Assembly (NCBI GenBank): GCA_046483985.1
Contig: JAWOCD010000120.1
Span: forward strand, 1-64,000
Reading direction: 5' to 3'
Origin: Promethearchaeia archaeon
GTDB taxonomy: Archaea > Asgardarchaeota > Lokiarchaeia > Sigyniarchaeales > SOKP01
Length of the DNA stretch: 64,000 bases
Part shown: piece by piece, positions 4,338-37,534 of the stretch
How the letters are laid out: every line of letters starts with the position of its first letter
Numbering within the stretch: the stretch's first letter is position 1
Notes under the pieces: generated by a model
What the model was told of the DNA's origin: nothing
What the model saw: only the letters and a program-made list of their open reading frames with translations
Databases searched by the model: none
Made by a program: the position numbers and the translations under genes

Positions 4338-4898
4338 ATGACTCTAAAAATTATGTGGGGAATTACGGGCACCGGATATCTTTTAGAAGAATCAATAGCT
4401 CTGATGAAAGAATTGCAAGAAGATTTTGATGTGGAAATCACCGTAATGCTCTCCAAGGAGGGGGCGGTTGTTGTCAAGTGGTATAAGCAATGGGATGACC
4501 TAAATGCAGTGGTTCCCAGAGTGAAGGTGGAAAAAACACCGAATAACCCATTTTTAGCAGGACCGCTACAAATTGGAAAGTATGACTTCCTAATCGTTGC
4601 TCCTCTCTCTGCAAATAGCGTTGCAAAAATTGTGTATGGGATCGCAGACTCTTTAATTACTAATTGTGTGGCACAAACTATTAAAGGGGGAGTTCCAGTT
4701 TATCTTTTACCCAGCGACCAGCATAAAGAACCAATTATCACTTCAAAACCGGATGGAGGTAAGTTAGTCCTTAAGATTAGGGATATTGAATTAGAAAATG
4801 TGGAGAAACTTAAGAAGATGGAAGGGATCACGGTCTTTTCCGATTTTGAACATATGAAAGATTTTTTACTAAAAGAAGCGAAAGATAAAACCAGTTAG
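4338..4898 (+). CDS. afpA: Archaeoflavoprotein AfpA family flavoprotein
   Basis: WGITGTG, APLSANSVAKIVYGIADSLITN, LPSDQ. Confidence 0.85.
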   Translation: MTLKIMWGITGTGYLLEESIALMKELQEDFDVEITVMLSKEGAVVVKWYKQWDDLNAVVPRVKVEKTPNNPFLAGPLQIGKYDFLIVAPLSANSVAKIVYGIADSLITNCVAQTIKGGVPVYLLPSDQHKEPIITSKPDGGKLVLKIRDIELENVEKLKKMEGITVFSDFEHMKDFLLKEAKDKTS

Positions 4899-4915
4899 CA
4901 CATTAGCAATTTTCA

Positions 4916-5365
4916 TTACTTTACCTCGTCCGGGTTATATTTTATAACCTTTATTGCTCCTTCCGGGCAATTTAATTCGCATTTCTCACATCCTTGACAT
5001 TTTGAAATCTCAGAGTGCTTATATACCACTCCTTCTACTTTTTTCCCGTCTCTCATCACCTTACCCACTTCAAAAAGATGGTTCGGACATATTGCGCCAT
5101 CCATATCGGTACAAAGACCGCACATAGTACACTTATCATAATCGATTTTGACATTGGCCACTTCATTGGGGACAACATAGGTCACTTGTATTAAATTCCT
5201 GGGACATACCCGCTGACAATCCAAGCATCCTTTACATTTACTGTAATCTACAAATCGCAGACTTTGCTCAAAGTAAATTGCATCGTTTTTACAAGCATTG
5301 TAACATCGCTTACATTTCGTGCACCGCTCTTGATCTATTTGAATAGGGATAAATGTTTCTTTCAT
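4916..5365 (-). CDS. Polyferredoxin (multiple 4Fe-4S)
   Basis: Repeated CxxCxxCxxxC(P) motifs, about four clusters. Confidence 0.9.
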   Translation of the reverse strand: MKETFIPIQIDQERCTKCKRCYNACKNDAIYFEQSLRFVDYSKCKGCLDCQRVCPRNLIQVTYVVPNEVANVKIDYDKCTMCGLCTDMDGAICPNHLFEVGKVMRDGKKVEGVVYKHSEISKCQGCEKCELNCPEGAIKVIKYNPDEVK

Positions 5366-5599
5366 TTTTTATACCGTCATTATATTCTTGTGTAAACACT
5401 ATTTTAAAGATGATTTCAATACATTTAAAATTGAGTTTTATAAGAAATTAGATTAAGTTGTGGATAGAGATCCATAATTATCTCCAATTTAGGATTATGA
5501 TGGAAGAAAAAGCATTAATTTTTTTGTCCGAAAAATTGATAATATTAAAATGGAGAGGAGTCTAGATAACGGGTAACTGGATTTAGTGGTAAAATCCAG

Positions 5600-6394
5600 T
5601 TATTGATAATACTCCGTGTAACCACCTTGTCCACCTTGTGTGAGTTGTTTCTTTTGATATTCCTTGGCCTTTTCAGCAAGTTCTAACATCTTTTCCTTTA
5701 TTTCTTTACCCTCATCGATTAACGGTTTGGTGTTAATTTCTAACCCATAAATCTTATTGAGGATCTCAATAATTGCGGCAGCTCCTTCTGGTGTGGGAAT
5801 CTGAAAGACAGGAGTAAAAAAAGCGCGAGGATCCAAACGATTGGTTAAGGCTTCATTTAGAATAGTTGCTTCTGGTCCCGCAATAACTCCCTTTTCAACT
5901 TTCTCAACCCCCAAATTTTCCACTTCTTCCAGCTTTTTTTCTGCTGCATAAAATACCGGAAATTCATCAATCATTCCTTTTTTAGGGATGCCTTGAAACA
6001 CCACCACTTGGGAAGCTTTGACATCGTCCGATAGTGCCCAATTACAGATGGTTCGAGAAAGATCATTATAGGCTGACGGTGCTTCAAAGGGAACTTCTAT
6101 AATGCCTACAATTACATTATACTTAGGGCTGTAATATAAGCGAAAGGGATGTTTAAGCAATCCATTGTAAAACACACTAATCGGAGGGAGATATTCAGAT
6201 GTTATAAAGCCAATTTGTTTAATATCGGGGATTTGGTCAATTAAAGCATTGGCGATTATAGGTCCTATTAACCCTACCCCCGCAAAACCCAACATCATAG
6301 TCGCTTTTGGCTGGATATCGACCCCAACATCTTCAATTACTACAGATGACTTCTTTCCTGGCGGGCAAACATAAGTTTTCTTTATTTTCGTCAT
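5600..6394 (-). CDS. PAC2-family proteasome assembly chaperone
   Basis: GFAGVGLIG, PPISV...HPFRLY, PTPEGAAAII and a YYQ-type C-terminal tail; ATG at 6394 preferred. Confidence 0.85.
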   Translation of the reverse strand: MTKIKKTYVCPPGKKSSVVIEDVGVDIQPKATMMLGFAGVGLIGPIIANALIDQIPDIKQIGFITSEYLPPISVFYNGLLKHPFRLYYSPKYNVIVGIIEVPFEAPSAYNDLSRTICNWALSDDVKASQVVVFQGIPKKGMIDEFPVFYAAEKKLEEVENLGVEKVEKGVIAGPEATILNEALTNRLDPRAFFTPVFQIPTPEGAAAIIEILNKIYGLEINTKPLIDEGKEIKEKMLELAEKAKEYQKKQLTQGGQGGYTEYYQ

Positions 6395-6574
6395 ATTCTC
6401 ACTATAATTTTTAATTATACTTAACAACTAAAAATCTATTAAATAATATAAAATCTGAAACTTTTTTTATATTTTGTTTACTGGTATGAAAAGTAATTTT
6501 TTATTAAACTAAATGTTAAATAATATACAAGTTAATTTATTACAAAAAAGATGGAAGAAGGCGTTTAGTTAAAG

Positions 6575-7375
6575 ATGGACTTATTACAACTAGAGAATGT
6601 TACCATCCCAACATTTGAAGGGGATAGTATCATCGTAGATGACGCAAGCTTCGGTGTAAAGGAAGGATCAATCCACGCAATTATTGGTCCGAACGGAAGC
6701 GGGAAATCTACACTTGCATATAGTATTATGGGAATAGATACCTATACCCCCTCTCACGGAAAAATCTATTTTGACGGAAAAGATATAACTGATCTCGATA
6801 TCACAGAGAGGGCAAAAAGGGGGATTACATTGGCATGGCAAGAGCCTGCTCGCATCGATGGACTTTCGGTCTTTAAATACATTTCATTGGGAATAAAAGA
6901 CAAGTCAAATTTATTGGAAGATGTAAAAAACTTTCTGGAGATTGTCAACTTAGAACCTAAGGAATACCTATCCCGGGAGATTAATGAAACCTTAAGTGGA
7001 GGAGAGCGGAAACGAATTGAATTGGCAGCTGCTATTGCAATGCAACCCCGACTAATTATACTTGATGAGCCCGATTCTGGGTTAGATGTGATTATCACAG
7101 AGGATTTTCTTAATATTTTTAACAAAATCAAGAATCTTAATATGACCATTCTGCTGATTACTCATAGAGAAGAGATTGGGATGGTTGCTGATTACGGAAC
7201 CCTTCTCTGGCACGGAAATATGGTGATTACCGATGAATTTCCCGAAGTTATGCTTCGTTATTGTAAAAAGGCAGGCTTAAAAGAGTTCTGTAAGCGCACG
7301 TTGTTTAAGAATGGTGAGCGATGCTTTTCAGAAGATTATATTGACAAAATATTTGAGGGAGAGGAAGAATTATGA
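6575..7375 (+). CDS. sufC: SufC/SmsC-type Fe-S assembly ABC ATPase
   Basis: GPNGSGKST, AWQEP, LSGGERKRIE, LDEPDSGLD; directly upstream of a SufB/D gene. Confidence 0.88.
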   Translation: MDLLQLENVTIPTFEGDSIIVDDASFGVKEGSIHAIIGPNGSGKSTLAYSIMGIDTYTPSHGKIYFDGKDITDLDITERAKRGITLAWQEPARIDGLSVFKYISLGIKDKSNLLEDVKNFLEIVNLEPKEYLSREINETLSGGERKRIELAAAIAMQPRLIILDEPDSGLDVIITEDFLNIFNKIKNLNMTILLITHREEIGMVADYGTLLWHGNMVITDEFPEVMLRYCKKAGLKEFCKRTLFKNGERCFSEDYIDKIFEGEEEL

Positions 7376-8331
7376 GCGAAGAGGAATATCCGGAGGACAT
7401 TTTAAAAAGTTTAGAAGATTATGAGATTGATGTGGAGGATTTTATCCCTGGACATGGAAAGGGCGCAAAATTGCTTTTAGATTTTAATAATGTGAAAGGA
7501 GTCGAAGAAAAAGAGGGCGTTATATTAAAGGCTCGGGAAATACCGAATGGAATCGTTGCAGATGTAATTATAAAAGAGGGAACAAAGTTAGAAGAACCGG
7601 TCCACCTCTGTTTTGGAGTGAATAAACAAACGGGCGTTCAAGAATTATTTCCACGAATTATCGCAGAAGATAATACGGATGTTACCGTTCAAGCGCACTG
7701 CAGTTTTCCGAATGCGGATGGATTAATTCATAAAATGTTCGGACATTTTTACATCGGAGAGAATTGTAACTTTGAATATGCTGAAACCCATTATCATGGG
7801 GAAAAGAGCGGAGCAACCGTTGCACCCGTGGGATATATGTATGTAGGGGAGAATAGTGTATTTGAAAATAGTTTTCGATTAACTCGAGGCACTCCTGGAG
7901 ATGTGAAAATCATGTTAGATATCTACGCCATGAAAAATAGCATCATTCGATCAAATGTGAAGGCTTTCGGAAAAAATAAAAACGATTCCGTGCGAATTCG
8001 GGATTCCATCTTTTTAGAAGGAGATAATTCCCGTAGTATTCTCAAAATGAAAGCTGCTGCGAAAGATGGTGGTGAAGTCTTGATGTATGGGGTTACCGAA
8101 GGAAATGCCCCCAATTGTAACGGTCATGTAGAATGTAATGAAATTGTTTTGGGGAAAGGCTCCATTTGTCGAGCAAGACCCTTTATTCGTGCCACCGATC
8201 CGAATTCTAGCGTATCACATGAAGCATCGCTCGGGCGATTTCCCCGTAAGTGGTTAAACGAACTCCAAGCGAAAGGGTTAACGGAGGAAAAAGCCACAGA
8301 AGTGTTAATTGAAGCTATGTTAAACGAATAA
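7372..8331 (+). CDS. sufB: SufB/SufD (SmsB)-family Fe-S scaffold
   Basis: PVHLCFG, AHCSFP, GHVEC, SHEASLG; ATGA overlap with sufC. Confidence 0.88.
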   Translation: MSEEEYPEDILKSLEDYEIDVEDFIPGHGKGAKLLLDFNNVKGVEEKEGVILKAREIPNGIVADVIIKEGTKLEEPVHLCFGVNKQTGVQELFPRIIAEDNTDVTVQAHCSFPNADGLIHKMFGHFYIGENCNFEYAETHYHGEKSGATVAPVGYMYVGENSVFENSFRLTRGTPGDVKIMLDIYAMKNSIIRSNVKAFGKNKNDSVRIRDSIFLEGDNSRSILKMKAAAKDGGEVLMYGVTEGNAPNCNGHVECNEIVLGKGSICRARPFIRATDPNSSVSHEASLGRFPRKWLNELQAKGLTEEKATEVLIEAMLNE

Positions 8332-9112: not shown

Positions 9113-9463
9113 TTACTTTTTTTTCCAAATATTATATTTATAGCAAATTTCTTCGGATATGTAAATTCGGTTAGTAAATTTTAAATTTAAATCATCATAT
9201 TCTCTGTATTCTTCATTTTCAATAAGTTTTTTACCATCCTTTTCCGATATAATAAGGGGATATAGATACTCACCGTTAATTAAATCATCAAAAACAACAA
9301 TATAATCATCTTCATTTTCTTCCAAATCTTCATTTTGATAAGTCTCTAAAACAGAAGATTTCAAAGCATCTTCTTTTATGAATCTTTTATAGAATTTATC
9401 TTTCAATAAATTTTTAATTTGTACTATTATAAAACGCTTGTTTCTAATCAATTTTCTATTCAC
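9113..9463 (-). CDS. Hypothetical protein in an AT-rich patch
   Basis: 116-aa ORF with no recognisable motif. Confidence 0.4.
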   Translation of the reverse strand: MNRKLIRNKRFIIVQIKNLLKDKFYKRFIKEDALKSSVLETYQNEDLEENEDDYIVVFDDLINGEYLYPLIISEKDGKKLIENEEYREYDDLNLKFTNRIYISEEICYKYNIWKKK

Positions 9464-9892
9464 TTCTTTTATTTTTTTTTTTTAGTAAAAGCCGTTTCAA
9501 AATCAAGATCTCCGGTTTGATCCGTAAATCCGGTATAATCTTCTTGATTTTCGTAAATCCTAATTGTATTTTTTTTTTGCATATTTGAGTAACCTTTTAT
9601 TTTTTGTAGTTTTTTAATGTTTTGATATAATATAATTATATCTTATCCTATTTAAAGCTTTAGGCGTAATAGAAAGGCGTATAATATATTTTCTATGATT
9701 TAGATTATTCAGAATAATAATATCACTATTATGCTTTATATTATCCCTTGTATTAGTATCTGTATTAGTAATTGTTAAGTTATCTAACTTAACAGGGTTA
9801 ATAAGAAAGAGTAAAAAAAGTATTAAAAACCCTCTAAATCCATTTATAGGGTAAAAAAGGAAAAGATAATAAATTACTAATCTTGACTTTAT

Positions 9893-28798: not shown

Positions 28799-30211
28799 TT
28801 ATTCTGGGGTTTTTGTTCTGATATCCGGGGTTTTTGACTTGATTTTGTCCTCTTGAAGTTTTTCTAATTTTTTTATACGCTTTTCTAATTCATTTCGTCT
28901 TTTATGGAGTTCTGATTTCTCATTTTTAATTTTGTTCCGCTCTTTTCTGATAATTTTCTTTTCTTTTTGGATATCTGCTTTCTGTTTATCAAGTCGTTTC
29001 TGGTCCCGTTGAATTTCCGAGTTTAATTTGCTTTTTTTATCCTCTAAATTGTCCACATCATTGCGCAAAGTATCATATTGATTTTTTAACTTATCTAAGT
29101 TTTTTTTCAATTTTTTTTCCTTTTTTTCAAGACGGTTTGTTTTTTTTCGGATCTTTTTCATCTTTTTCTTCTCTTTTCTTCGGGTCTTCTTTGCCTTTTT
29201 TCTTTCTTTCTTCAATTCATTTTTAGTATCGTCTAAGTCGTCTTGCTTATCTTCTAACTCATCGATTTTATAATCCACTTCTTGCTTTTTATGTCGTAAT
29301 TTTTCTTTTTGCTCATCGATCTTTCTCCGTTCTTCATCTAACTTATACTTTTGCCGAGAAATATCATTTTTGATTTTTGCCATTTCATCCTCTAAGTCAC
29401 TCTTTTGATCCGATAAATCTGAAACCTCATCTCTTAGACTCTCTACTTTCCCTTTGAGATTATCATAATCCTCTTTTAATTTATTTCTGGCCGCCTTCAG
29501 TTTGCCCAAATCTTCTTTTAAATCCTCACTATCTGCTCTTTTCTTCTTGATGTTCTTTTTGAGATTATCCAATTGTTCTTCAAGATCATCATGTCGTTTT
29601 TGGTCCCGTTGAATTTCCGAGTTTAACGTGCTTTTTTTATTCTCCAATTTGTCCGTTCTATCCTCTAAGTCACTCTTTTGATCCGATAAATCTGAAACCT
29701 CATCTCTTAGACTCTCTACTTTCCCTTTGAGATTATCATAATCCCCTTTTAATTTATTTCTTCCCGCCTTCAGTTTATCCAAGTCTTCTTTTAAATCCTC
29801 ACTATCTGCTCTTCTCTTCTTAATGTTCTTTTTGAGATCATCCAATTGATCTTCAAGATCATTTTTTCTCTGAGAAAGATCATGAATTTTCCTTTTAATG
29901 AGCGATAATTCCTTTTTTTTCTCAGTTAACTCTTGATTAATGTTATCCAGTTTCGCTTGCTCTCTTTTTTTCCGTTTTAATAATTTGTGATGGTTAGTTT
30001 CCAAATATTTTTGTTTTTCTTCAAGTTTTTCTACTTTATTTTTTTTCTTTTGTGCCACTTTAGCAATTTTTTCCCATTTTTCACGTTCTTGTTTAAGCTT
30101 TTGTTTTTCTTTCCTGATATCGTCTAATAACTGCTCATTTTTTCGAATAATATCGACTTTATCCGGGGTTTTCTCCTTTATTTTATATTTCGGGGGTGTT
30201 TTATCGTTCAT
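28799..30211 (-). CDS. Long charged coiled-coil protein with a 91-aa internal duplication
   Basis: Continuous heptads; DNA duplication with 273-bp period. Confidence 0.85.
   Translation of the reverse strand: MNDKTPPKYKIKEKTPDKVDIIRKNEQLLDDIRKEKQKLKQEREKWEKIAKVAQKKKNKVEKLEEKQKYLETNHHKLLKRKKREQAKLDNINQELTEKKKELSLIKRKIHDLSQRKNDLEDQLDDLKKNIKKRRADSEDLKEDLDKLKAGRNKLKGDYDNLKGKVESLRDEVSDLSDQKSDLEDRTDKLENKKSTLNSEIQRDQKRHDDLEEQLDNLKKNIKKKRADSEDLKEDLGKLKAARNKLKEDYDNLKGKVESLRDEVSDLSDQKSDLEDEMAKIKNDISRQKYKLDEERRKIDEQKEKLRHKKQEVDYKIDELEDKQDDLDDTKNELKKERKKAKKTRRKEKKKMKKIRKKTNRLEKKEKKLKKNLDKLKNQYDTLRNDVDNLEDKKSKLNSEIQRDQKRLDKQKADIQKEKKIIRKERNKIKNEKSELHKRRNELEKRIKKLEKLQEDKIKSKTPDIRTKTPE
29388..29860. repeat. 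Intragenic direct repeat, 273-bp period
   Basis: tcctctaagtcactcttttgatccgataaatctgaaacc... at 29388 and 29661. Confidence 0.9.
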
Positions 30212-30367: not shown

Positions 30368-30763
30368 ATGTCTTTTGATGATGAATTTGATGAGGATTTA
30401 GACGAAGACTTGGAGTTTGAGGAAGAAGAGCCAGAGCCGATTCAATCCAAAACACCTAATGCTACACCAGCTGAAAAGACACCAGCTGCAAAGACACCTG
30501 CTGGAGGAGGAGGTAAAAAAATTACCTTATATTTTACCTCTACAATCGGACCTGGAGAAAAGAAACAGAAGTTAATCGTGAATGATGGAAATACCGTTGG
30601 AGATATAAAAGAGACCGTAGGTAATATTTTTGGTTTAAACCCCACAGATTTCCATCTCTCTTCTGGAGGAGTAACCATGGATGACGCTAATCCACTTAGT
30701 GACTACTCCGTTTCAGAAGGCGATGATGTCTTGTTAATACCTGCTAGTACTGCAGGTTTCTAA
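30368..30763 (+). CDS. Ubiquitin-like modifier, UFM1-like, with an acidic disordered N-arm; ends IPASTAG-F
   Basis: Beta-grasp pattern (TVGDIKETV...LSDYSVSEGDDVLLIP); first gene of the E1/E2/JAMM operon. Confidence 0.88.
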   Translation: MSFDDEFDEDLDEDLEFEEEEPEPIQSKTPNATPAEKTPAAKTPAGGGGKKITLYFTSTIGPGEKKQKLIVNDGNTVGDIKETVGNIFGLNPTDFHLSSGGVTMDDANPLSDYSVSEGDDVLLIPASTAGF

Positions 30764-30828
30764 AAAAGGTTCAAAATTTATAATTTTTTCTTTATTTTTT
30801 TATATTCATATTAAGGGTAGATAGCAAA

Positions 30829-32052
30829 ATGAAAGAAAGATCAGAATTTTTTAGCAAAGAATTAACCGATGAGGAACGAGAACTTTATGATCGCCAATTT
30901 CGATTAGAAGGGTGGTCTCAAAAGATAGTAAAAAACTCCCGTATTCTTATAATTGGGGTTGGAGGGCTTGGATGTGAAATTGCTAAAAACTTGGCTATGT
31001 TAGGGGTAGGTCATTTAGATTTAGTAGATTTAGATATCATTGAACATTCCAACTTAAATCGCCAGTTATTATTTGCAGGTGCTGAAATGGGAGCTCCAAA
31101 AGCTTTAGTGGGCGCCGAAAGACTTTCAGAAATAAACCCAAACATCGAGATTAAAGGATATCATACTTCACTCGAACAAGTTAATCCCATTTTATATAAA
31201 AAAGCAGATGTGGTGATTGGGGGGCTCGATTCGATGAATGCCCGCCTTAATCTTAACGCTCAATGTATTAGATTTAAAAAACCTCTAGTTGATGGGGGTG
31301 TTTCTGGTTATTACGGACACACCTATACCGTTTTTCCCTACGAAAATGCGTGTTACGAGTGTAACCCGCTACCAGTTGGAGAAAGTGAGGAAATGGCCGC
31401 CTGTACGGTGGTTGGAATTCCCAGAAAACGGATCCATTGTGTATTTAAGGGAAGCATGGCTTTTGAGGAAGAATTTGACAGAGAACCTAATCCTCAAAAT
31501 CTTGAGGATATGAAATTTATTAAGCAAAAAGCAAATGAATTAGTGGAAAAACATGATTTTTACCCTTATTATACGGAATCTGATATCGTGCAAATTATAG
31601 ACAGACATGATCCCGGTATTATAACGATAAACGCAGCAATATCGGCATTCCAATCCCATGAGGCTATGAAAATCCTACATTGGAATAGCGGAAATAAAGG
31701 ATTAGGAGAGCCCGTAAAAACTTATGTGATCTTTAACGCGGTCACTATGAAAATTTACCATATTGAAAAGAATAGAAACCCTGATTGTTTGCAATGCGGC
31801 GAACATGTACGAAGAGTCTCGGTCAAAATGAAAAAGGACTATCCTTGTTCTCGGATAGTTGATATACTTGAGCAAAATGGATTTCAAGTGGATCCTGAGT
31901 TTGAGCCAACCTTGACCGTGATGGATTTCAACAATATTAAGGTAGTTGACTTGGACAAAACTCCCCAAGAAAATGAATTAAGAAATTATGAACTTATCAC
32001 AGCTGCGGGATTCAGAGAGGGAGAAATATTTGTTACGCTAAAATTACATTAA
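30829..32052 (+). CDS. Ubiquitin-like activating enzyme E1 (UBA3/UBA2-like)
   Basis: YDRQ, GVGGLG, SNLNRQ, CYEC/CLQC Zn pairs, catalytic ACTVVGIPRKRIHC, C-terminal UFD-like extension. Confidence 0.93.
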   Translation: MKERSEFFSKELTDEERELYDRQFRLEGWSQKIVKNSRILIIGVGGLGCEIAKNLAMLGVGHLDLVDLDIIEHSNLNRQLLFAGAEMGAPKALVGAERLSEINPNIEIKGYHTSLEQVNPILYKKADVVIGGLDSMNARLNLNAQCIRFKKPLVDGGVSGYYGHTYTVFPYENACYECNPLPVGESEEMAACTVVGIPRKRIHCVFKGSMAFEEEFDREPNPQNLEDMKFIKQKANELVEKHDFYPYYTESDIVQIIDRHDPGIITINAAISAFQSHEAMKILHWNSGNKGLGEPVKTYVIFNAVTMKIYHIEKNRNPDCLQCGEHVRRVSVKMKKDYPCSRIVDILEQNGFQVDPEFEPTLTVMDFNNIKVVDLDKTPQENELRNYELITAAGFREGEIFVTLKLH

Positions 32053-32140
32053 AAATAAACAAACAAATAAACTAAATTTATTTATATGTTAAGTTTCTTT
32101 AATTATTAAAGGAAATAGAAATAAACTAAAGGATTGAGTT

Positions 32141-32668
32141 ATGAGTGTAAGAAGTAGTAGGATTAGTCAAGATTTTGCAGCCTTAAAAAAGCTTAAAAAG
32201 AAAGGGGAAATTTTACAATTAAAACCCTTTAACCCTAAAAAGAAGAGTATTGATCATTTAGCGATTTTAATTAAGGGACCCGAAGGAACCCCTTATGAGA
32301 AGGGGATTTTTAAGATTGAAATGAAATTCCCCCCTCAATATCCAAAACGACCGCCCTTTGTTCGTATGCACACGCCAATCTGGCATCCCAATTTCTGGCC
32401 TAAACCAGGCGAATACAAAGGACAGCGAAATATTTGTTTGGCTCTCGTAGATCCAAGTTTAATAGGAAAGAAAGGTGGGTGGAGCCCTTCAAAAACCGCA
32501 GTAACCGTAATTCAATCAATAAAAGCAATGTTGGATACTCGCGGAAAATATGTTAACCCCATGGATGTATTTAATAAGAAAGCTGCTCTAGAAATGATGA
32601 AAAAACCGAAGCGTTTTGAGAAAAAAGTAAAACATTTAGTTAAGAAATACGCAAATAAAAAATGGTGA
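32141..32668 (+). CDS. Ubiquitin-conjugating enzyme E2
   Basis: GPEGTPYEKG, FPPQYPKRPP, WHPNF...ICL (catalytic Cys), WSP. Confidence 0.95.
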   Translation: MSVRSSRISQDFAALKKLKKKGEILQLKPFNPKKKSIDHLAILIKGPEGTPYEKGIFKIEMKFPPQYPKRPPFVRMHTPIWHPNFWPKPGEYKGQRNICLALVDPSLIGKKGGWSPSKTAVTVIQSIKAMLDTRGKYVNPMDVFNKKAALEMMKKPKRFEKKVKHLVKKYANKKW

Positions 32669-33465
32669 AATATTTAATGCCCGATGCTCCAGAAGATACA
32701 GAAAAAATTAAAAAGGAAATAAAAGAAAAAATAAAAGGCAAACTTAAAAAACAGATAAAGAAAGAGCTTATGGACGAGATTTATCAAGAGCTCTTAAGTG
32801 AAGAAGAAGAAATTGCGGGTGATATTTCTTCTCATTTCAGTAAATCAAGTGAAACAAAGCAAAAAGAACAGAAATTAGAAGCCCCCAAACCAAAGAGAAA
32901 ATCTGCGAAAACATTGATCACGGTGAAAGCAGTATTGAAGATTGCGAGTCATTCATTAAAATATGCCAATGAAAAAATCCCAAAGGATGAATGGGTGGAA
33001 GTAATTGGGTTACTTGCAGGTAAGATCAATAATGAGAATGTTTTGGTTATCGAAGATGTTTATCCGATGGGGCATGGGTCTGCAGTGAATGCTGAAATAA
33101 AGGATTATAATAATTACATCAAGGCGTTTAAAGATATTAAAAAAAATAACCTTTTTATTTGCGGATGGTATCATTCTCACCCTTCCTATGGGTGTTTTAT
33201 GAGCGATGAGGATATGGGGACTCAAAAACGATATCAAAAATTATGGAAAAAGGCTCTTGCACTAGTAATTGACCCTTATGAAATAGACGGAACTTCCTAT
33301 GGTTTTCAAATTTTCAGAGCTAATCTGAGAAAGAATAAATGGTACCCCGTTTCTTATGATATTAAAGGATCTCTTGACCCAAAAACCCTACCGCAATTGG
33401 TCGATTTTATCAATCCAATTGTAGACGGAAAAGCAATTTATTTAGAGTATGATGAGAAAGAATAA
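32662..33465 (+). CDS. JAMM/MPN+ metalloprotease (Rpn11/CSN5-like)
   Basis: EVIGLL, WYHSHPSYGCFMSDED, VIDP; overlaps the E2 stop codon. Confidence 0.93.
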   Translation: MVKYLMPDAPEDTEKIKKEIKEKIKGKLKKQIKKELMDEIYQELLSEEEEIAGDISSHFSKSSETKQKEQKLEAPKPKRKSAKTLITVKAVLKIASHSLKYANEKIPKDEWVEVIGLLAGKINNENVLVIEDVYPMGHGSAVNAEIKDYNNYIKAFKDIKKNNLFICGWYHSHPSYGCFMSDEDMGTQKRYQKLWKKALALVIDPYEIDGTSYGFQIFRANLRKNKWYPVSYDIKGSLDPKTLPQLVDFINPIVDGKAIYLEYDEKE

Positions 33466-33492
33466 GCAAGTTATGAACTTTCCTACTCATCT

Positions 33493-34659
33493 ATGGTGAT
33501 ATTATTGATAAGAAATCGTAATTATCTTTATCTTTTTGGAATATTTGTGATTATTGGGCTGATTCATGCCCTTATAAGGTATTCTGCTCTTATTTTTTTA
33601 ACTTGGATGTTAATGGGGATATGGAGCGCATTTACAGTAAAATTATTTGAAAATATTAAATTATCGCGAGAACTAAATTCACCTAAAAATACCGAATTTT
33701 TTATTCTCTTCCCCATTTTTATCGGATTTTTTTTTCTCTTTTGGGGTCATTATACCCCTTTTCTAAATCAAAATATTTTCGGCAATAGTAATTTGTACCT
33801 TAGCCCTTGGATATTGATCTTTTCTTTACCATATCTGCTTTATTCTCTCTTTTCCCTCTTTTTATGCTTTCGAAATTATGATTTTGTCTATATTGGGAGC
33901 AAACCCTTTGAAGCAAATAAATTTGCGTTGTTTTTATCCATTTTGTGGATAATTTTTGGCCTTTTTTCATCTGTTTTTATTGAGGTGGGATATGGCATAA
34001 TGGAAGGGGTCTTTTCATTTACCGTTACAAATTTCTTTTTTGATTCATTTATTTTAGTCTTAACTGTAATCTCGGGATTATTATTAATATACGGACTTGC
34101 GAAACTACGAGGTCCATTACCTGAAATTAATCAAGAGATTATCGCAAGGAGAAGGAATCGGATTTCCCGTATACAAAATGAGCAGCCTAGAACCATCCAA
34201 AATACGAGAACCCGTTCCCGGGCCTCTTCGAGGAGGAGTACTCCAACTGGAAGTTCTGCTCGAACAAGTAGAACAAGTAGAACAAGTAGATCTCGATCAC
34301 GAAGAAAACGTAAGAAGAAAAAGAAGAGGAGGGCACCATCAAGAAAAACCACTAAAACCACTAAAACTATAAAATTAGGACAACTTAAACCCCGAACGGG
34401 AAATTTAAGCCTTGATGATTTTAAATGCATTCATTGCTTTCGCCTTCCAGAGTTAAAGAAAGACAAGGATAGGGGGATTGTTGTGTGCCCTCATTGTAGG
34501 TTCCCCTCCCATGCCGATGAGTTTAGAGAATGGTTGCGTAATTCAACATTATGTTCACGTTGCGATACTCCATTACCGAAATCATATGTCAGAAATCCTC
34601 CTATTATTCCCGTAGATGTTTATCTTAAGGCTATGAAGAAATTACTTAAGAGAAAATAA
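33493..34659 (+). CDS. Multi-pass membrane protein with a C-terminal RING-like domain (putative E3)
   Basis: About 6 TM helices, R/S/K-rich linker, C-x2-C-x16-C-x2-C-x4-H-x2-E-x3-W-x6-C-x2-C. Confidence 0.75.
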   Translation: MVILLIRNRNYLYLFGIFVIIGLIHALIRYSALIFLTWMLMGIWSAFTVKLFENIKLSRELNSPKNTEFFILFPIFIGFFFLFWGHYTPFLNQNIFGNSNLYLSPWILIFSLPYLLYSLFSLFLCFRNYDFVYIGSKPFEANKFALFLSILWIIFGLFSSVFIEVGYGIMEGVFSFTVTNFFFDSFILVLTVISGLLLIYGLAKLRGPLPEINQEIIARRRNRISRIQNEQPRTIQNTRTRSRASSRRSTPTGSSARTSRTSRTSRSRSRRKRKKKKKRRAPSRKTTKTTKTIKLGQLKPRTGNLSLDDFKCIHCFRLPELKKDKDRGIVVCPHCRFPSHADEFREWLRNSTLCSRCDTPLPKSYVRNPPIIPVDVYLKAMKKLLKRK

Positions 34660-34701
34660 AAATAAAATTTTGCCATAAAATTATATTAAGATGGTGAGAG
34701 A

Positions 34702-35469
34702 ATGGCTGAAATTAGAAAAGAGAAAGATGAAAAACCCTTAATAATAAAAAAAGAATATCATTGTTCTGTATGTCAAACAACGCATACGATAGAAATTCCA
34801 AGCAATTTAGCAGAAAGTAGAAAAAAATATCCATTTCCGTATGTATTTATTCATTCTAGCGAAGATGATAAAAATGATATAGTATCTATGCTCTATTTTG
34901 ACAAGAATTTAAAAATCCGAGGGTCAGAAGCCGTTAAGCTGGAGCAGAGTAATCTCGTTTCAAAGAATCTCACCAAACAACTTGTGAGCAAACTGACTAA
35001 TATTATCATGGACTTGGAAGAAGAAAACTTCCAACTTAAAAACCTCTTAAATTCTCCTCATATTGAAGAAATAATAAGGGAAGAGAGTAGAAATTTGAAG
35101 AAATCACTATTGGGGGAGTATAAGAAGAGGAAAAAACGCCAAAAACCCCAGGGATCGCATCATCGCAAAAAGAAAGTAAAGCCTAAAGTTCCAAAGAAGG
35201 ATACTTCAAGGGAAATATTCGTCTATTTTACCTCTACCGTTGGTCCAGAGGAACAGACAAAAAGACTAATCATTGATAAAACCATTACTATTGCAAAACA
35301 AAAGAGAAAAATCGGAAAGATTTTTGGGTTAATCCCTGCAAACTTTCATTTAGCTTCTGGGGGTCTTAGCTTAAAGGAAACCCGTACCTTACAATCTTAT
35401 AATATCTCACCTAATGATGAAATCTTGATAATCCCCTCAAGCACCGCAGGGGCATTTTATTTTGGGTAA
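34702..35469 (+). CDS. Zn-finger - coiled coil - Ubl fusion; ends IPSSTAG-AFYFG
   Basis: CSVC..H, YPFPYVFIH, IRGSE; C-terminal domain clearly homologous to 30368..30763. Confidence 0.82.
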   Translation: MAEIRKEKDEKPLIIKKEYHCSVCQTTHTIEIPSNLAESRKKYPFPYVFIHSSEDDKNDIVSMLYFDKNLKIRGSEAVKLEQSNLVSKNLTKQLVSKLTNIIMDLEEENFQLKNLLNSPHIEEIIREESRNLKKSLLGEYKKRKKRQKPQGSHHRKKKVKPKVPKKDTSREIFVYFTSTVGPEEQTKRLIIDKTITIAKQKRKIGKIFGLIPANFHLASGGLSLKETRTLQSYNISPNDEILIIPSSTAGAFYFG

Positions 35470-35480
35470 AACCTCTTTCC

Positions 35481-35513
35481 TGAACTACCGCGCTCTAATG
35501 AGTTATGGATTCG
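35481..35513 (-). mobile_element. Degenerate IS200/IS605-like right-end remnant
   Basis: Minus strand reads ...cattagagcgcggtagttca, like the copies at 37566 and 47671. Confidence 0.4.
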
Positions 35514-35763
35514 TATTCCGTTGCAAACTGCTCGCCTAAGTACAGAGGATTACAGTAACTTCAAACGCTAACATTTCAGGGCTTGCGGTTACAAGATGAA
35601 CTTGGTTATCGTCCATCAATATTTTTATAGTATTATGCGTTTATAGATGTATGTGAAGGGAGAAAAATAAATTATGGTTTTAATTCAATTTAACCTAGAA
35701 AAAATTATAAAGATATAAAATAACTTAAAATTATACTACTTAAATTTCTGTTGTGGTTAAAGA

Positions 35764-36657
35764 ATGTCCGAAAAGAAAAAAGAAAGGAGAGAAACCCCTT
35801 CAACAGTAAGGAAGATATATCATTGTCCCGTGTGTAAAACGAATCATACGATCAAGCTTCCCAGTAATTTATCTGAAGACCGAAAGAAATATCCTTTTCC
35901 CTATGTTTTTATCCACTCCAGTGAGGATAATAAACATGACATTGTATCAATGCTTTATATTGATAAACACTTGCAAATACGCGGGTCAGAGGCCGTTAAA
36001 CTGGAAAATAGTAATTTAGTTTCAGAGGATGTTTCCAAACAAGTTGTAAATAAATTAACGAATATTATTATGGATCTGGAAGATGAGAACTTTAAACTTA
36101 AGAGTCTCGTTCAATCTCAAAATATTGAAGACATGATAAAAGAAGAAACCAAAAATTTAAAGGAAGCCTTGTTAGGTCCTGATAAGAAGAAGTCCAAAAC
36201 CGAAGAACGTGGAGAGAGTAAACCTCTTTCTTTTGAAGTTAAAGATACTCAAAATCAGCAGAATATGACGTTTCAGGAGAACCTAGATTCTATACCGAAA
36301 CCGGAGCATCCAAAAGAAAAAGAAATCAATTCAAAAACATCTGAAGATAGTTCCGCGGTCCATTCAAAAACCCCCCAGGAAGTCAAAGCCGAGAAAATTG
36401 CAGTCTATTTTGCATCTACTATCGGTCCCGAGAAAAAAAAACAAAAGCTGGCTGTTAACAAGACCGTACCAGTAAAGGAACTAAAAAAAACGGTAGGAGA
36501 GATTTACGGGTTAATCACGGCAAATTTTCACTTATCTGCCGGTGGCCTTACCTTAGATGAAAATCGCACTCTCAACTTTTATAATCTGTCTCATAATGAT
36601 GAAATTTTAATAATTCCCTCAAGTACTGCGGGAATTCATTCAATAACTTCCAGATAA
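35764..36657 (+). CDS. Zn-finger - coiled coil - Ubl fusion; ends IPSSTAG-IHSITSR
   Basis: Close paralog of 34702..35469 with the same Ubl C-domain. Confidence 0.82.
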   Translation: MSEKKKERRETPSTVRKIYHCPVCKTNHTIKLPSNLSEDRKKYPFPYVFIHSSEDNKHDIVSMLYIDKHLQIRGSEAVKLENSNLVSEDVSKQVVNKLTNIIMDLEDENFKLKSLVQSQNIEDMIKEETKNLKEALLGPDKKKSKTEERGESKPLSFEVKDTQNQQNMTFQENLDSIPKPEHPKEKEINSKTSEDSSAVHSKTPQEVKAEKIAVYFASTIGPEKKKQKLAVNKTVPVKELKKTVGEIYGLITANFHLSAGGLTLDENRTLNFYNLSHNDEILIIPSSTAGIHSITSR

Positions 36658-36802
36658 TTTTATCTGTTTTCTTTTTCTCCTTTTTTTCCCTTATATTCCT
36701 TAATAATTGTCAAAATATACAAACCTAATCCGTAAAAAATTAGTATAATCAATTATTTTGTTAATTATAAAACTCTTGTTTCTCCCCGTTTAAGTGAAAA
36801 AA

Positions 36803-37534
36803 ATGACAAAGGATGCTGAGGTTATAGAGGAAGTATTAGAATTGAGGGAAAATGCGGAATATAAAAAGGCGTATCAGAAAATCAGTAAGCTCTATGAACA
36901 AAATAAAAAATCGTCAGAAGTTAAACAAACATATATTGATACATTATTTGCTTATGCCTTTTATTTGAGTGATGATTGCGTTTTGCAATTTGAAAAGGCA
37001 GCAGAATGCCTTAAAGAAATTCTACAGTTAGATCCCGAAAATTACCGTGCTTATTACAATTTAGGAATAACTTATTATGATATGGACAAAACTGAAAAAG
37101 CTCTTAAGATGTATAATGAAGCGTTAAAGCTTAAGCCGGATAATAAATACGTTCATTATAATATTGGAATAATCTATGAGGATAAGAATCAATTTAAGAA
37201 AGCGCTCAAATATTATAGACGCGCGATAAATCTTGATAAGGATTTTTTATACGCAAAACAAGCAAAACATTCGTTAGAACGGTATATTGAAAACAATCCA
37301 GAGAGCATAAAATCCGAACGACATCCTGAAAAACTTAAACGCCTTAAATCCTTATTTCGCGTTTCTAATAAGGTGAGGCTCGACGATATTCAAGAAATCA
37401 TAAATTTTAGTCGAGAAAAAACACTTGATTTAGTGGTAGATTGGGCAGAAGATTATGGGTTGCATATTAATGGAGATTTCTTGGTTTTAAATGAAAGAAG
37501 TAAATCGGCTTTTCTTAAAAATTTAGAAATCTAG
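36803..37534 (+). CDS. TPR protein with a C-terminal wHTH/PCI-like domain
   Basis: AYYNLG...ALK.KP and HYNIG...YYRRAI TPR repeats; C-terminal VRLDDIQEII...INGDFL. Confidence 0.8.
   Translation: MTKDAEVIEEVLELRENAEYKKAYQKISKLYEQNKKSSEVKQTYIDTLFAYAFYLSDDCVLQFEKAAECLKEILQLDPENYRAYYNLGITYYDMDKTEKALKMYNEALKLKPDNKYVHYNIGIIYEDKNQFKKALKYYRRAINLDKDFLYAKQAKHSLERYIENNPESIKSERHPEKLKRLKSLFRVSNKVRLDDIQEIINFSREKTLDLVVDWAEDYGLHINGDFLVLNERSKSAFLKNLEI

Follow-up and report, generated by a model that had tools for sequence, protein, structure and literature searches.

Organization and conservation of the locus

Does a cluster of eight genes in a Promethearchaeia archaeon encode a ubiquitin-type conjugation pathway with a modifier of its own, one that ends in Ala-Gly instead of Gly-Gly? 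To answer this, we analysed the cluster within the whole stretch of 64,000 nucleotides that contains it (the window; contig JAWOCD010000120.1). An earlier note on this DNA had described eight co-oriented genes at 30368-37534 on the + strand, and all eight ORFs were confirmed there. They encode, in order, a ubiquitin-like (Ubl) precursor, an E1, an E2, a JAMM metalloprotease, a membrane protein, two proteins in which an N-terminal domain is fused to a Ubl, and a TPR protein. In the core formed by the first five, the E2 and JAMM genes overlap by 7 nt and gaps between genes measure 27-88 nt. A hint of transcription comes from one RNA library, which contains two identical contigs. The genes flanking it are housekeeping genes, and no ESCRT gene was found near it.

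We then looked at the conservation of this arrangement. The order Ubl-E1-E2-JAMM-membrane protein was identical in 17 of 20 relatives' loci, and in an 18th the contig end falls inside E2. Among species-representative Asgard genomes, the five-gene core kept its order in 50 of 78 loci, most of the remaining ones being interrupted by contig ends. A search of 301 Asgard genomes detected the Ubl family itself in 122. These results indicate that the linkage is strongly conserved, as expected of the self-contained cassette that the note had proposed. Moreover, the same genome carries elsewhere a separate GG-type Ubl, which scores better against the ubiquitin model than the operon Ubl (41 vs 26 bits), and a second E1/E2 pair, whose E2 is 39% identical to that of the operon. 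The operon therefore need not borrow a GG-ubiquitin, in line with the pathway having been described as self-contained.

The modifier family ends in Ala-Gly

The Ubl precursor (131 aa, 30368..30763, + strand) was characterized by its Pfam ubiquitin match, an AF2 model and Foldseek. Its residues 1-48 form an acidic arm, disordered in the AF2 model, that carries I-Q-S-K-T-P at positions 24-29. The ubiquitin-fold domain (residues 49-130, pLDDT about 91) terminates in P-A-S-T-A-G and is followed by a single extra residue, F131. The three Ubl domains of the operon, the free one and those of the two fusion proteins, matched Pfam ubiquitin with E-values of 1.8e-5, 6e-5 and 4e-3, at or just under the cut-off. 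S-T-x-G-P, F-H-L-x-x-G-G and I-P-x-S-T-A-G are invariant in all three, the last motif being preceded by I or L, and none ends in GG, STAG being followed by 1, 5 and 7 residues. The alignment thus agrees with the common motifs and non-GG ends first seen by eye.

The best Foldseek match of the Ubl was Caldiarchaeum ubiquitin, and ubiquitin, NEDD8 and ISG15 were among the best 50. Its nearest sequence-profile matches also belong to the ubiquitin family (Caldiarchaeum ubiquitin, ISG15, NEDD8, ubiquitin), and every one of its atlas neighbours carries PF00240. When the profile alignment with ubiquitin was extended without gaps, the final Gly corresponded to G76 of ubiquitin and the Ala to G75. At E<=1e-3, 875 Ubl homologues were collected, and this number, with the gene order shared by dozens of genomes, lies far outside what chance would produce. 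Among those with STAG, 62 of 108 end precisely on the Gly, the others continuing for 1-4 residues that are not conserved, and over half of the best 120 Ubl homologues likewise end on the Gly. Proteins made of two or three tandem Ubl units were also found, as well as 15 clusters of fusions (HerA-Ubl and CDC48_N+vWA-Ubl included) where A-G always lies at most 6 residues from the end. The P-x-S-x-A-G end was retained over about 45 clusters (50% identity). Such retention of Ala-Gly and P-x-S-x across divergent clusters implies selection, and the idea of a non-diglycine modifier family is borne out, with Ala-Gly in place of Gly-Gly. We found no published description of this tail or of the membrane ligase.

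E1, E2 and JAMM enzymes

The single-chain E1 (407 aa, 30829..32052, +) matched ThiF at 1.3e-58 over residues 22-321, the model having 238 positions. It contains G-x-G-x-x-G, two C-x-x-C zinc motifs and an A-C-T motif whose Cys aligns with the catalytic Cys of L-C-T in Uba1, and this catalytic-Cys segment is inserted within the ThiF adenylation domain. Among solved enzymes it comes closest to Uba1, SAE2 and UBA3 (about 133 bits), UBA5 reaching 57 bits. Its C-terminus is extended by about 85 aa, possibly an E2-recruiting domain. The E2 (175 aa, 32141..32668, +; UQ_con 6e-27) has H-P-N and a catalytic Cys99 (N-I-C-L), the two being separated by a 7-residue insert. It is a canonical UBC, closest among solved structures to UBE2T, Ubc13 and UBE2L3. 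Across four families it is 68-81% identical, with HPN and Cys invariant.

The third enzyme is an Rpn11-like JAMM/MPN+ metalloprotease (267 aa, 32662..33465, +; JAB 3.5e-17) with the catalytic set Glu, H-S-H, Ser and Asp. Direct reading or alignment to solved enzymes thus located the catalytic residues of E1, E2 and JAMM that the earlier note had listed. Solved JAMM deubiquitinases cut after Gly-Gly, whereas the operon enzyme would have to cut after Ala-Gly; variable pro-tails and tandem poly-Ubl precursors argue for such cleavage. Its nearest solved relative is the Rpn11-like enzyme of Caldiarchaeum (6fjv), followed by Rpn11 and CSN5, and the Caldiarchaeum enzyme processes the ubiquitin precursor of that organism (PMC6043591). 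By homology, the JAMM is probably the enzyme of both maturation and deconjugation. It is always present with the Ubl, and the tails and tandem precursors argue for the dedicated maturation protease postulated at the outset.

A candidate membrane ligase

The fifth gene (33493..34659, +) encodes a 388-aa protein that we analysed by hydropathy, invariant Cys/His, AF2 and Foldseek, Pfam giving no match. Hydropathy and charge reveal six hydrophobic helices, then a strongly basic Ser/Thr-rich linker of 95 aa. The C-terminus (residues about 296-388) is a RING/U-box-like zinc domain modelled with a pLDDT of 94, in which C312, C315, C332, C335, H340, C354 and C357 are invariant, i.e., seven ligands against the canonical eight. 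RING or U-box domains made up the whole of its top 50 Foldseek matches (E 3e-3 to 0.1), the best of them being modest (E 2.7e-3, TM about 0.55).

A modelled complex of this domain with the E2 scored 0.48, the best control scoring 0.00, and gave weak support to an interaction; at least 97% of the contacts agreed between runs and partner pLDDT was at least 88. RING and E2 are a textbook pair, and the score may reflect mere likeness to known RING-E2 pairs. Altogether, the modelled fold makes the six-helix protein the probable ligase of the operon, and the membrane-localised ligase that had been predicted thereby has a candidate.

Fusion proteins, TPR protein and candidate coiled-coil partner

Fusion protein 1 (255 aa, 34702..35469, +; ORF list, Pfam and Ubl alignment) consists of an N-terminal H-C-x2-C-x3-H domain, a linker that is helical and basic, and a C-terminal Ubl ending in S-S-T-A-G plus 5 residues. 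Its paralogue, fusion protein 2 (297 aa, 35764..36657, +), ends in S-S-T-A-G plus 7 residues and has V-H-S-K-T-P before the Ubl. The two N-domains are 68% identical, have no Pfam match, and their homologues are exclusively Asgard hypothetical proteins. What had been called a Zn-finger is a putative one, an H-C-x2-C-x3-H motif in this Asgard-specific domain. The TPR gene (246 aa, 36794..37534, +; TPR_1 8e-21) starts 136 nt 3' of the second fusion gene on the same strand. In one relative (L039), a TPR gene of like size adjoins a fusion gene, on the opposite strand. The fusion and TPR genes were found in few relatives and do not belong to the conserved core. In this window, the two fusion genes and the TPR gene are lineage-specific additions, the TPR gene being an accessory whose link to the system is uncertain.

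Beyond the span described earlier, the ORF list showed a divergently transcribed gene for a coiled-coil protein (470 aa, 28799..30211, - strand), for which Pfam gave coiled-coil-type noise only. It carries I-x-x-K-T-P motifs at both ends, and 11 of 18 loci of relatives have, at the same position, a divergent gene for a coiled-coil protein with K-T-P motifs at its ends. Genome-wide, the motif is not enriched (18 observed vs 16 expected), and 3 of the 18 occurrences are in the coiled-coil protein, the highest number of any ORF. A role for I-x-x-K-T-P is thus suggested by position and conservation only, and the coiled-coil protein may be a built-in substrate or a partner of the system.

Nature of the encoded system

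With a probability of about 0.7, we propose that the operon encodes a ubiquitin-type conjugation cascade, a homologue of the operon-encoded ubiquitin system of archaea, and that this cascade would use an Ala-Gly modifier and act at the cell membrane. The Rpn11-like JAMM would trim the residues past the conserved Gly, 1 from the free Ubl and 5 and 7 from the fusions. The exposed Gly would be adenylated by the single-chain E1, and the Ubl would be moved onto the A-C-T cysteine, then handed to Cys99 of the HPN E2. On the cytoplasmic side, the RING/U-box-like domain of the six-helix protein would bind the charged E2 and promote transfer to lysines of nearby proteins, and the JAMM would also remove the tag. 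Likely acceptors are lysines within I-x-x-K-T-P, whose presence in the disordered arm of the modifier would lead to chains and which recurs at both ends of the coiled-coil protein. Since the fusion proteins keep a seemingly conjugation-competent C-terminal Ubl, the same enzymes could conjugate them to targets in their entirety. We infer all these steps from homology and conservation.

The operon could instead be a Loki-lineage orthologue of the ordinary archaeal or Asgard ubiquitin system, neither distinct from it nor orthogonal to it, with a tail that drifted (G75 to Ala) without functional consequence. All components are indeed nearest to ubiquitin-system proteins, and Asgard operons with Ub, E1, E2, RING and JAMM genes were already reported (PMC5654768, PMC6043591, PMC9192718). 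However, we hold this to be unlikely, given the Ala-Gly and P-x-S-x retained across the divergent clusters, the higher-scoring GG-ended Ubl, second E1 and second E2 of the genome, and a ligase candidate that spans the membrane several times and is no small soluble RING protein. The claim of a distinct pathway therefore stands for the Ala-Gly modifier class and the self-contained cassette, but not for a system set apart from archaeal ubiquitin operons.

Three further readings have far less in their favour. An archaeal UFM1-type system, ancestral to UFMylation, is suggested by the tail (a single C-terminal Gly, an I-P-x4-G end, a short pro-tail) and by structure-based 'Ufm1 homologues' with partial and multiple hit regions in nine Asgard clades (PMC12962969). 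Those homologues could be the Ala-Gly Ubl family. Yet Pfam Ufm1 matched none of the operon proteins, nor anything genome-wide at E<=1, and had no above-cut-off match in 301 Asgard genomes; UFM1 is also missing among the best 60 sequence-profile and best 50 Foldseek matches, and the atlas neighbours are all PF00240. Moreover, the E1 is of the Uba1/2/3 type, not the UBA5 type, the E2 has the HPN that UFC1 lacks, and the protease is a JAMM instead of a UFSP cysteine protease, so that this reading is largely refuted. An antiviral module akin to E1/E2/JAMM systems of bacteria (CBASS Cap2/Cap3, Bil), putting the Ubl on viral or signalling proteins, seems highly improbable: the E1 ThiF domain matches PADLOC 'E1-E2' models with at most 59 bits and the JAMM gives a weak match to a JAB model, but only at domain level, and the E2, Ubl and membrane protein match nothing. 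The cassette occurs in 60 of the 68 genomes of the family, is syntenic and lies among housekeeping genes, and its proteins are highly conserved, unlike patchy, fast-evolving defence islands. Just as little weight goes to a sulfur carrier (MoaD/ThiS/SAMP/Urm1-like) that would join the E1 in thiolating cofactors or tRNA, conjugation being secondary or absent. The E1 does score against MoeB/ThiF models through the common adenylation domain, but always far under curated cut-offs and below other ThiF/MoeB-type genes of the genome. It also carries the inserted segment with the catalytic Cys, the genes for E2, RING and JAMM are linked without exception, and the modifier is a true member of the ubiquitin family.

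Comparison with known systems

The candidate ligase resembles Hrd1 and the MARCH family, membrane RING ligases of eukaryotes, in being polytopic and in having its RING-type domain in the cytoplasm, and the HRD1 RING is among its fold matches; however, the membrane parts have no sequence relationship and nothing ties the operon to ER-associated degradation. The flexible N-terminal arm of SUMO bears a consensus lysine that serves as acceptor in chain formation. Similarly, the arm of the operon Ubl is disordered with one conserved lysine motif, which recurs on the linked candidate substrate, but the motif is I-x-x-K-T-P and not psi-K-x-E, and the analogy would be one of layout only. With the eukaryotic modifiers UFM1, ATG8 and ATG12, the operon Ubl shares a single-Gly mature end, exposed at the stop codon or by removal of a short pro-tail, whereas its fold and sequence are closer to ubiquitin, NEDD8 and ISG15, and a canonical E1, HPN E2, RING and JAMM stand in place of UBA5/UFC1/UFL1/UFSP or ATG7/ATG3/ATG10/ATG4.

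The ESCRT-linked Gly-Gly ubiquitin cascades of Hel-, Odin- and Heimdallarchaeia (PMC9192718; preprint 10.1101/2023.07.25.550441) are likewise Asgard E1/E2/RING cascades with a pro-ubiquitin. They use di-glycine ubiquitin and soluble RING E3s beside ESCRT and UEV-Vps23 genes, whereas the present operon has an Ala-Gly tail and no nearby ESCRT gene, its genome keeping a GG-ended Ubl elsewhere. The operon of Candidatus Caldiarchaeum subterraneum comprises Ub, E1-like, E2-like, a small RING finger protein and an Rpn11-like JAMM (PMC5654768, PMC6043591). Both loci bring together these five types of component and encode the modifier as a short-tailed precursor, and the best solved-structure matches of our modifier and JAMM are Caldiarchaeum proteins. 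In contrast to Caldiarchaeum, the modifier ends in Ala-Gly and bears an acidic, disordered arm some 48 residues long, the seven-ligand RING-like domain terminates a six-helix membrane protein instead of being a small soluble RING, and there are a conserved divergent coiled-coil partner and fused and tandem Ubl forms. Since every enzyme and the modifier are nearest to Caldiarchaeum or eukaryotic ubiquitin components, the system is a variant of the archaeal ubiquitin operon, made distinctive by its Ala-Gly-ended modifier.

Genome Context and Conservation of the Operon

We looked at the organization of the operon in the genome to which the window belongs (4.06 Mb, 97% complete). Close homologues come from groups labelled Promethearchaeota, Lokiarchaeota or Hodarchaeota, or from comparable Asgard groups. 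ORF reading and Pfam searches showed that the eight co-oriented genes described in the earlier note are present on the plus strand between positions 30368 and 37534. The ubiquitin-family domain PF00240 was detected in the 131-aa protein (Ubl) and as the last domain of the 255-aa and 297-aa proteins (fusion 1, 34702-35469, and fusion 2, 35764-36657), ThiF in the 407-aa protein (E1, 1.3e-58), UQ_con in the 175-aa protein (E2), JAB in the 267-aa protein (JAMM, 3.5e-17) and TPR repeats in the 246-aa protein (36794-37534), while the 388-aa membrane protein gave no Pfam match. The start of the JAMM gene overlaps the end of the E2 gene by 7 nt and the remaining gaps within the core, formed by Ubl, E1, E2, JAMM and the membrane protein, measure 27-88 nt.

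The proposed linkage of these genes was found to be conserved. A complete and co-linear Ubl-E1-E2-JAMM-membrane protein set was detected in 17 of 20 loci from relatives belonging to four families, and in an 18th the contig end falls inside the E2 gene. Likewise, the full five-gene set was present in the same order and on the same strand in 50 of 78 loci from species-representative genomes, most of the others ending at a contig or flank boundary. The zinc-finger-type fusions and the TPR gene, which had been counted as parts of the operon, were seen in few of the relatives' loci; they are accessories of the window's lineage, outside the core. The N-domain of the fusions (34702-35100 and 35764-36160), in which a conserved segment rich in beta structure comes after H-C-x2-C-x3-H, is also found by itself, in Asgard proteins of 114-134 aa.

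In the commonest locus layout, an extra free Ubl is accompanied by a divergent membrane protein whose Ubl-like domain has no Ala-Gly end. This protein of about 264 aa, absent from the window, lies between two free Ubl genes (for instance at 7139-7927 in locus L042, 9144-9938 in L043 and 8057-8851 in L050) and begins with a hydrophobic segment. Since its Lys-rich end lacks Ala-Gly, it is probably non-conjugatable. Altogether, members of the Ala-Gly Ubl family were detected in 122 of the 301 Asgard genomes; the family is common in nine families (e.g., 60/68, 22/28 and 17/21 genomes) and was not found in other Asgard families (e.g., 0/76 and 0/19 genomes).

The Modifier Ends in Ala-Gly

The three Ubl domains of the operon are 43-51% identical in pairwise comparisons. 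The motifs S-T-x-G-P, F-H-L-x-x-G-G and I-P-x-S-T-A-G, reported from the first reading as shared by all three, are indeed invariant, and 1, 5 and 7 residues follow the tail. A Gly-Gly end after processing was not found, the three operon domains and about 45 family clusters all ending in x-A-G. Searching 5.8 billion proteins returned 875 Ubl homologues. Among the best 120 of these, the tail reads S-T-A-G in 108 and S-(I/V/M)-A-G in the other 12, and the terminal Gly is the last residue in 62 of the 108 S-T-A-G homologues, the others having 1-4 further residues that are not conserved. The same picture emerged when representatives at 50% identity were searched exhaustively with a profile: about 45 clusters end in P-x-S-x-A-G plus 0-6 residues with an invariant Ala-Gly. 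This pattern is the signature expected of a modifier with a reactive C-terminal Gly that is either encoded exposed or freed by trimming.

Two metagenomic representatives, P0121 and P0122, contain three and two head-to-tail units, respectively, each consisting of an acidic arm, S-K-T-P, the Ubl and x-S-x-A-G, which implies cleavage after the Gly. Moreover, the Ubl is the last domain in 15 clusters of fusion proteins, and in all of them Ala-Gly lies at most 6 residues from the end. Among the domains fused to it are those of a HerA-type ATPase and of CDC48_N+vWA proteins, as well as the N-domain of the operon's own fusions; in P0140, P0162 and P0194, representatives of the HerA-type ATPase and CDC48_N+vWA forms, the C-terminal Ubl stops on Ala-Gly or at most 5 residues beyond it.

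We then considered the family to which the modifier belongs. The AF2 model of the 131-aa Ubl is a confident beta-grasp (pLDDT about 91) with a disordered arm of 48 residues, and Foldseek placed Caldiarchaeum ubiquitin (6fno_D, 6fj7) on top, followed by ISG15, NEDD8 and ubiquitin. When the family profile was compared with PDB sequences, ubiquitin was the best match, with an alignment reaching V70 of ubiquitin; extending it without gaps sets P-A-S-T-A-G against L-R-L-R-G-G. The entries 8HM1-3, annotated as putative ubiquitin, outscored eukaryotic ubiquitin with this profile and proved to be ubiquitin homologues from Bacteroides rather than from an Asgard archaeon. All ESM-Atlas neighbours of the modifier belong to the ubiquitin family. 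Because the fold, profile and Atlas matches are of the ubiquitin type and the Ufm1 model finds nothing in this genome and nothing above the cut-off in 301 Asgard genomes, the modifier is a member of the ubiquitin family in which Ala replaces Gly75, and not a relative of UFM1. The operon Ubl has no Lys or Arg in the 49 residues before its C-terminal Gly, so standard di-Gly remnant proteomics would miss a modification by it.

The Enzymes and the Membrane Ligase Candidate

The E1 contains an adenylation domain, and in the alignment with Uba1 the cysteine of its A-C-T motif falls opposite the catalytic Cys. The enzyme is closer to Uba1, SAE2 and UBA3 (about 133 bits) than to UBA5 (57 bits), and stays far under the curated NCBIfam cut-offs for MoeB/ThiF/UbaA (for UbaA, 106 against 450). 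The E2 has a canonical UBC fold with H-P-N and Cys99 separated by a 7-residue insert, and is 68-81% identical over four families. In the JAMM protein, the metal site E...HxH...S..D of Rpn11-like enzymes is readable in the sequence; the closest solved structure is the Caldiarchaeum Rpn11-like enzyme 6fjv, followed by Rpn11 and CSN5. The Caldiarchaeum enzyme trims the Caldiarchaeum ubiquitin precursor (PMC6043591). About ten more proteins with JAB/MPN domains, several of 450-540 aa, are encoded on several contigs of the same genome (loci L137-L143), two of them side by side on contig C39.

The 388-aa protein consists of six hydrophobic segments, a linker of 95 residues, of which 34 are Lys/Arg and 3 are Asp/Glu, and a conserved C-terminal domain of about 90 residues. 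In this domain, C-x2-C, C-x2-C, H and C-x2-C are invariant and provide only seven conserved ligands. Its AF2 model (pLDDT 94) matched a RING or U-box in all 50 of the 50 best Foldseek matches, although these were modest (best E 2.7e-3, TM about 0.55); they include a human E3 U-box, Rad18, CHIP, HRD1, RING1B and zinc domains of IFT-A and GATOR2. At the sequence level, the domain resembled no solved structure significantly, the IFT144/WDR19 zinc domains (E 0.2-0.7) being the only matches. The predicted complex of the E2 with the RING-like domain was weakly supported, with a score of 0.48 in a range (0.60 or less) where passes are wrong more often than right unless the pairing is likely beforehand. 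Moreover, RING domains and E2 enzymes are a textbook pair, and the score may reflect likeness only. The best of three controls scored 0.00, contacts were at least 97% alike between runs and the pLDDT of the partners was at least 88. In calibration, the mark was reached by 58 of 80 solved complexes and by 2 of 110 mismatches.

A Second, Gly-Gly-Type Set in the Same Genome

A Ubl of 84 aa ending in Q-A-G-G plus one residue is encoded on contig C70 (3975-4166, minus strand; locus L001, 1486-1740). It scores 41 bits with the ubiquitin Pfam model versus 26 for the operon Ubl, and no E1 or E2 gene adjoins it. Contig C116 (locus L017) encodes a second E1 of 529 aa, whose ThiF domain has a large insert (4835-6424), and a second E2 of 169 aa with a UBC domain, HPN and Cys (9200-9709), which is 39% identical to the operon E2. 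These two genes are about 2.8 kb apart, with HAD, PIN/VapB and thioesterase genes between them, and may serve the Gly-Gly-type Ubl. Thus, a concrete alternative partner set exists for a Gly-Gly ubiquitin encoded elsewhere in the genome, and it is plausible that the operon pathway is orthogonal to it.

A Candidate Coiled-Coil Partner Shares a Motif with the Modifier

Directly upstream of the Ubl gene and divergent from it, a 470-aa coiled-coil protein is encoded (28799-30211, minus strand) which carries I-x-x-K-T-P near both ends. The arm of the Ubl contains I-Q-S-K-T-P, and V-H-S-K-T-P precedes the Ubl in fusion 2. Of 18 relatives' loci, 11 have at the matching position a divergent gene that likewise encodes a coiled-coil protein with terminal K-T-P motifs. 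Neither S-K-T-P nor I-x-x-K-T-P is enriched genome-wide (18 I-x-x-K-T-P seen versus 16 expected); the two adjacent genes hold 4 of these 18, and the coiled-coil ORF has the most of any. What stands for the motif is thus its local clustering and its conservation, and I-x-x-K-T-P is a candidate acceptor or docking site.

Discussion

The proposal of a distinct and self-contained modification pathway holds in part. What stands is a cascade of the ubiquitin type that is real and conserved, in which the end of the modifier is distinctive and the ligase candidate is a membrane protein; it is a variant of the known archaeal ubiquitin operon. The mechanistic steps of this cascade are all predicted from homology and conservation. 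Two short contigs from one salt-lake metatranscriptomic library are identical to the window at 32224-32419 (E2 gene) and 34318-34582 (RING-domain region), and may possibly be DNA carry-over. Among DNA data the best match is a freshwater-sediment metagenome; a DNA run containing identical fragments may represent the source sample, and parts of the window without read cover in sequencing runs carry no meaning.

Other classes of Ubl systems were weighed against these data. For a UFM1 system, nine Asgard clades have been reported to contain 'Ufm1 homologues' inferred from structure, the hit regions being partial and multiple (PMC12962969, 2026), and these may be the Ala-Gly family under another name. 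No PF03671 match was obtained in the operon proteins or the genome, and none above the cut-off in 301 Asgard genomes; one weak match to the Ufm1 model in another Asgard genome, when inspected, lay in a protein that lacks a Ubl end, and is most likely due to chance. UFM1 is also missing from the PDB sequence matches listed and from the top 50 Foldseek matches. As for its enzymes, a UBA5-type E1, a UFC1-type E2 without HPN and a UFSP cysteine protease are expected, whereas the operon E1 scores 133 bits to Uba1/SAE2/UBA3 and 57 to UBA5, its E2 has HPN and its protease is a JAMM.

The data speak against a bacterial defence system of the CBASS Cap2/Cap3 or Bil type, as the PADLOC matches were at the domain level only (ThiF with 59 bits or less, and JAB weakly). 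Such systems are expected to show a patchy, island-like distribution, and the cassette is near-universal within one family (60 of 68 genomes). Sulfur carriers of the SAMP/MoaD/ThiS/Urm1 type pair an E2-independent E1 with a Gly-Gly carrier; this reading fails here, since the curated scores were missed and E2, RING and JAMM genes are linked. No ESCRT or UEV gene was detected among the neighbours scanned.

Taken together, the data could be read as a second modification system that several Asgard lineages possess. Such a system would be orthogonal to the Gly-Gly ubiquitin pathway and would target the membrane; its own acceptor motif, I-x-x-K-T-P, would lie in the modifier arm and in a coiled-coil substrate inherited along with it, and whole proteins (ATPases, vWA proteins and the two fusions) would be attached via a C-terminal Ubl. 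We hold this joint reading as tentative, with a probability of about 0.3. No known group is more closely related to eukaryotes than the Asgard archaea, whose ubiquitin systems inform ideas on the origin of eukaryotic protein tagging. If a non-di-glycine tag does work with a membrane-embedded RING ligase, the diversification of Ubls (ubiquitin, NEDD8, SUMO) and membrane-directed tagging would be older than eukaryotes, and the Ala-Gly family would supply simple operon-encoded protein sets for reconstitution.

Operons encoding Ub, E1, E2, RING and JAMM are established in Caldiarchaeum and Asgard archaea, the Caldiarchaeum cascade and one Helarchaeial cascade have been reconstituted, and the ubiquitin in these studies is di-glycine throughout (PMC5654768, PMC6043591, PMC9192718, 10.1101/2023.07.25.550441). 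Our literature search, which covered few subscription journals, found no report of an Ala-Gly tail, of the RING protein anchored in the membrane or of the Ubl fusions. The tandem layout of the Ala-Gly family resembles that of polyubiquitin. In the Caldiarchaeum-type operon the E3 is a small soluble RING, whereas here the RING-like domain is anchored in the membrane.
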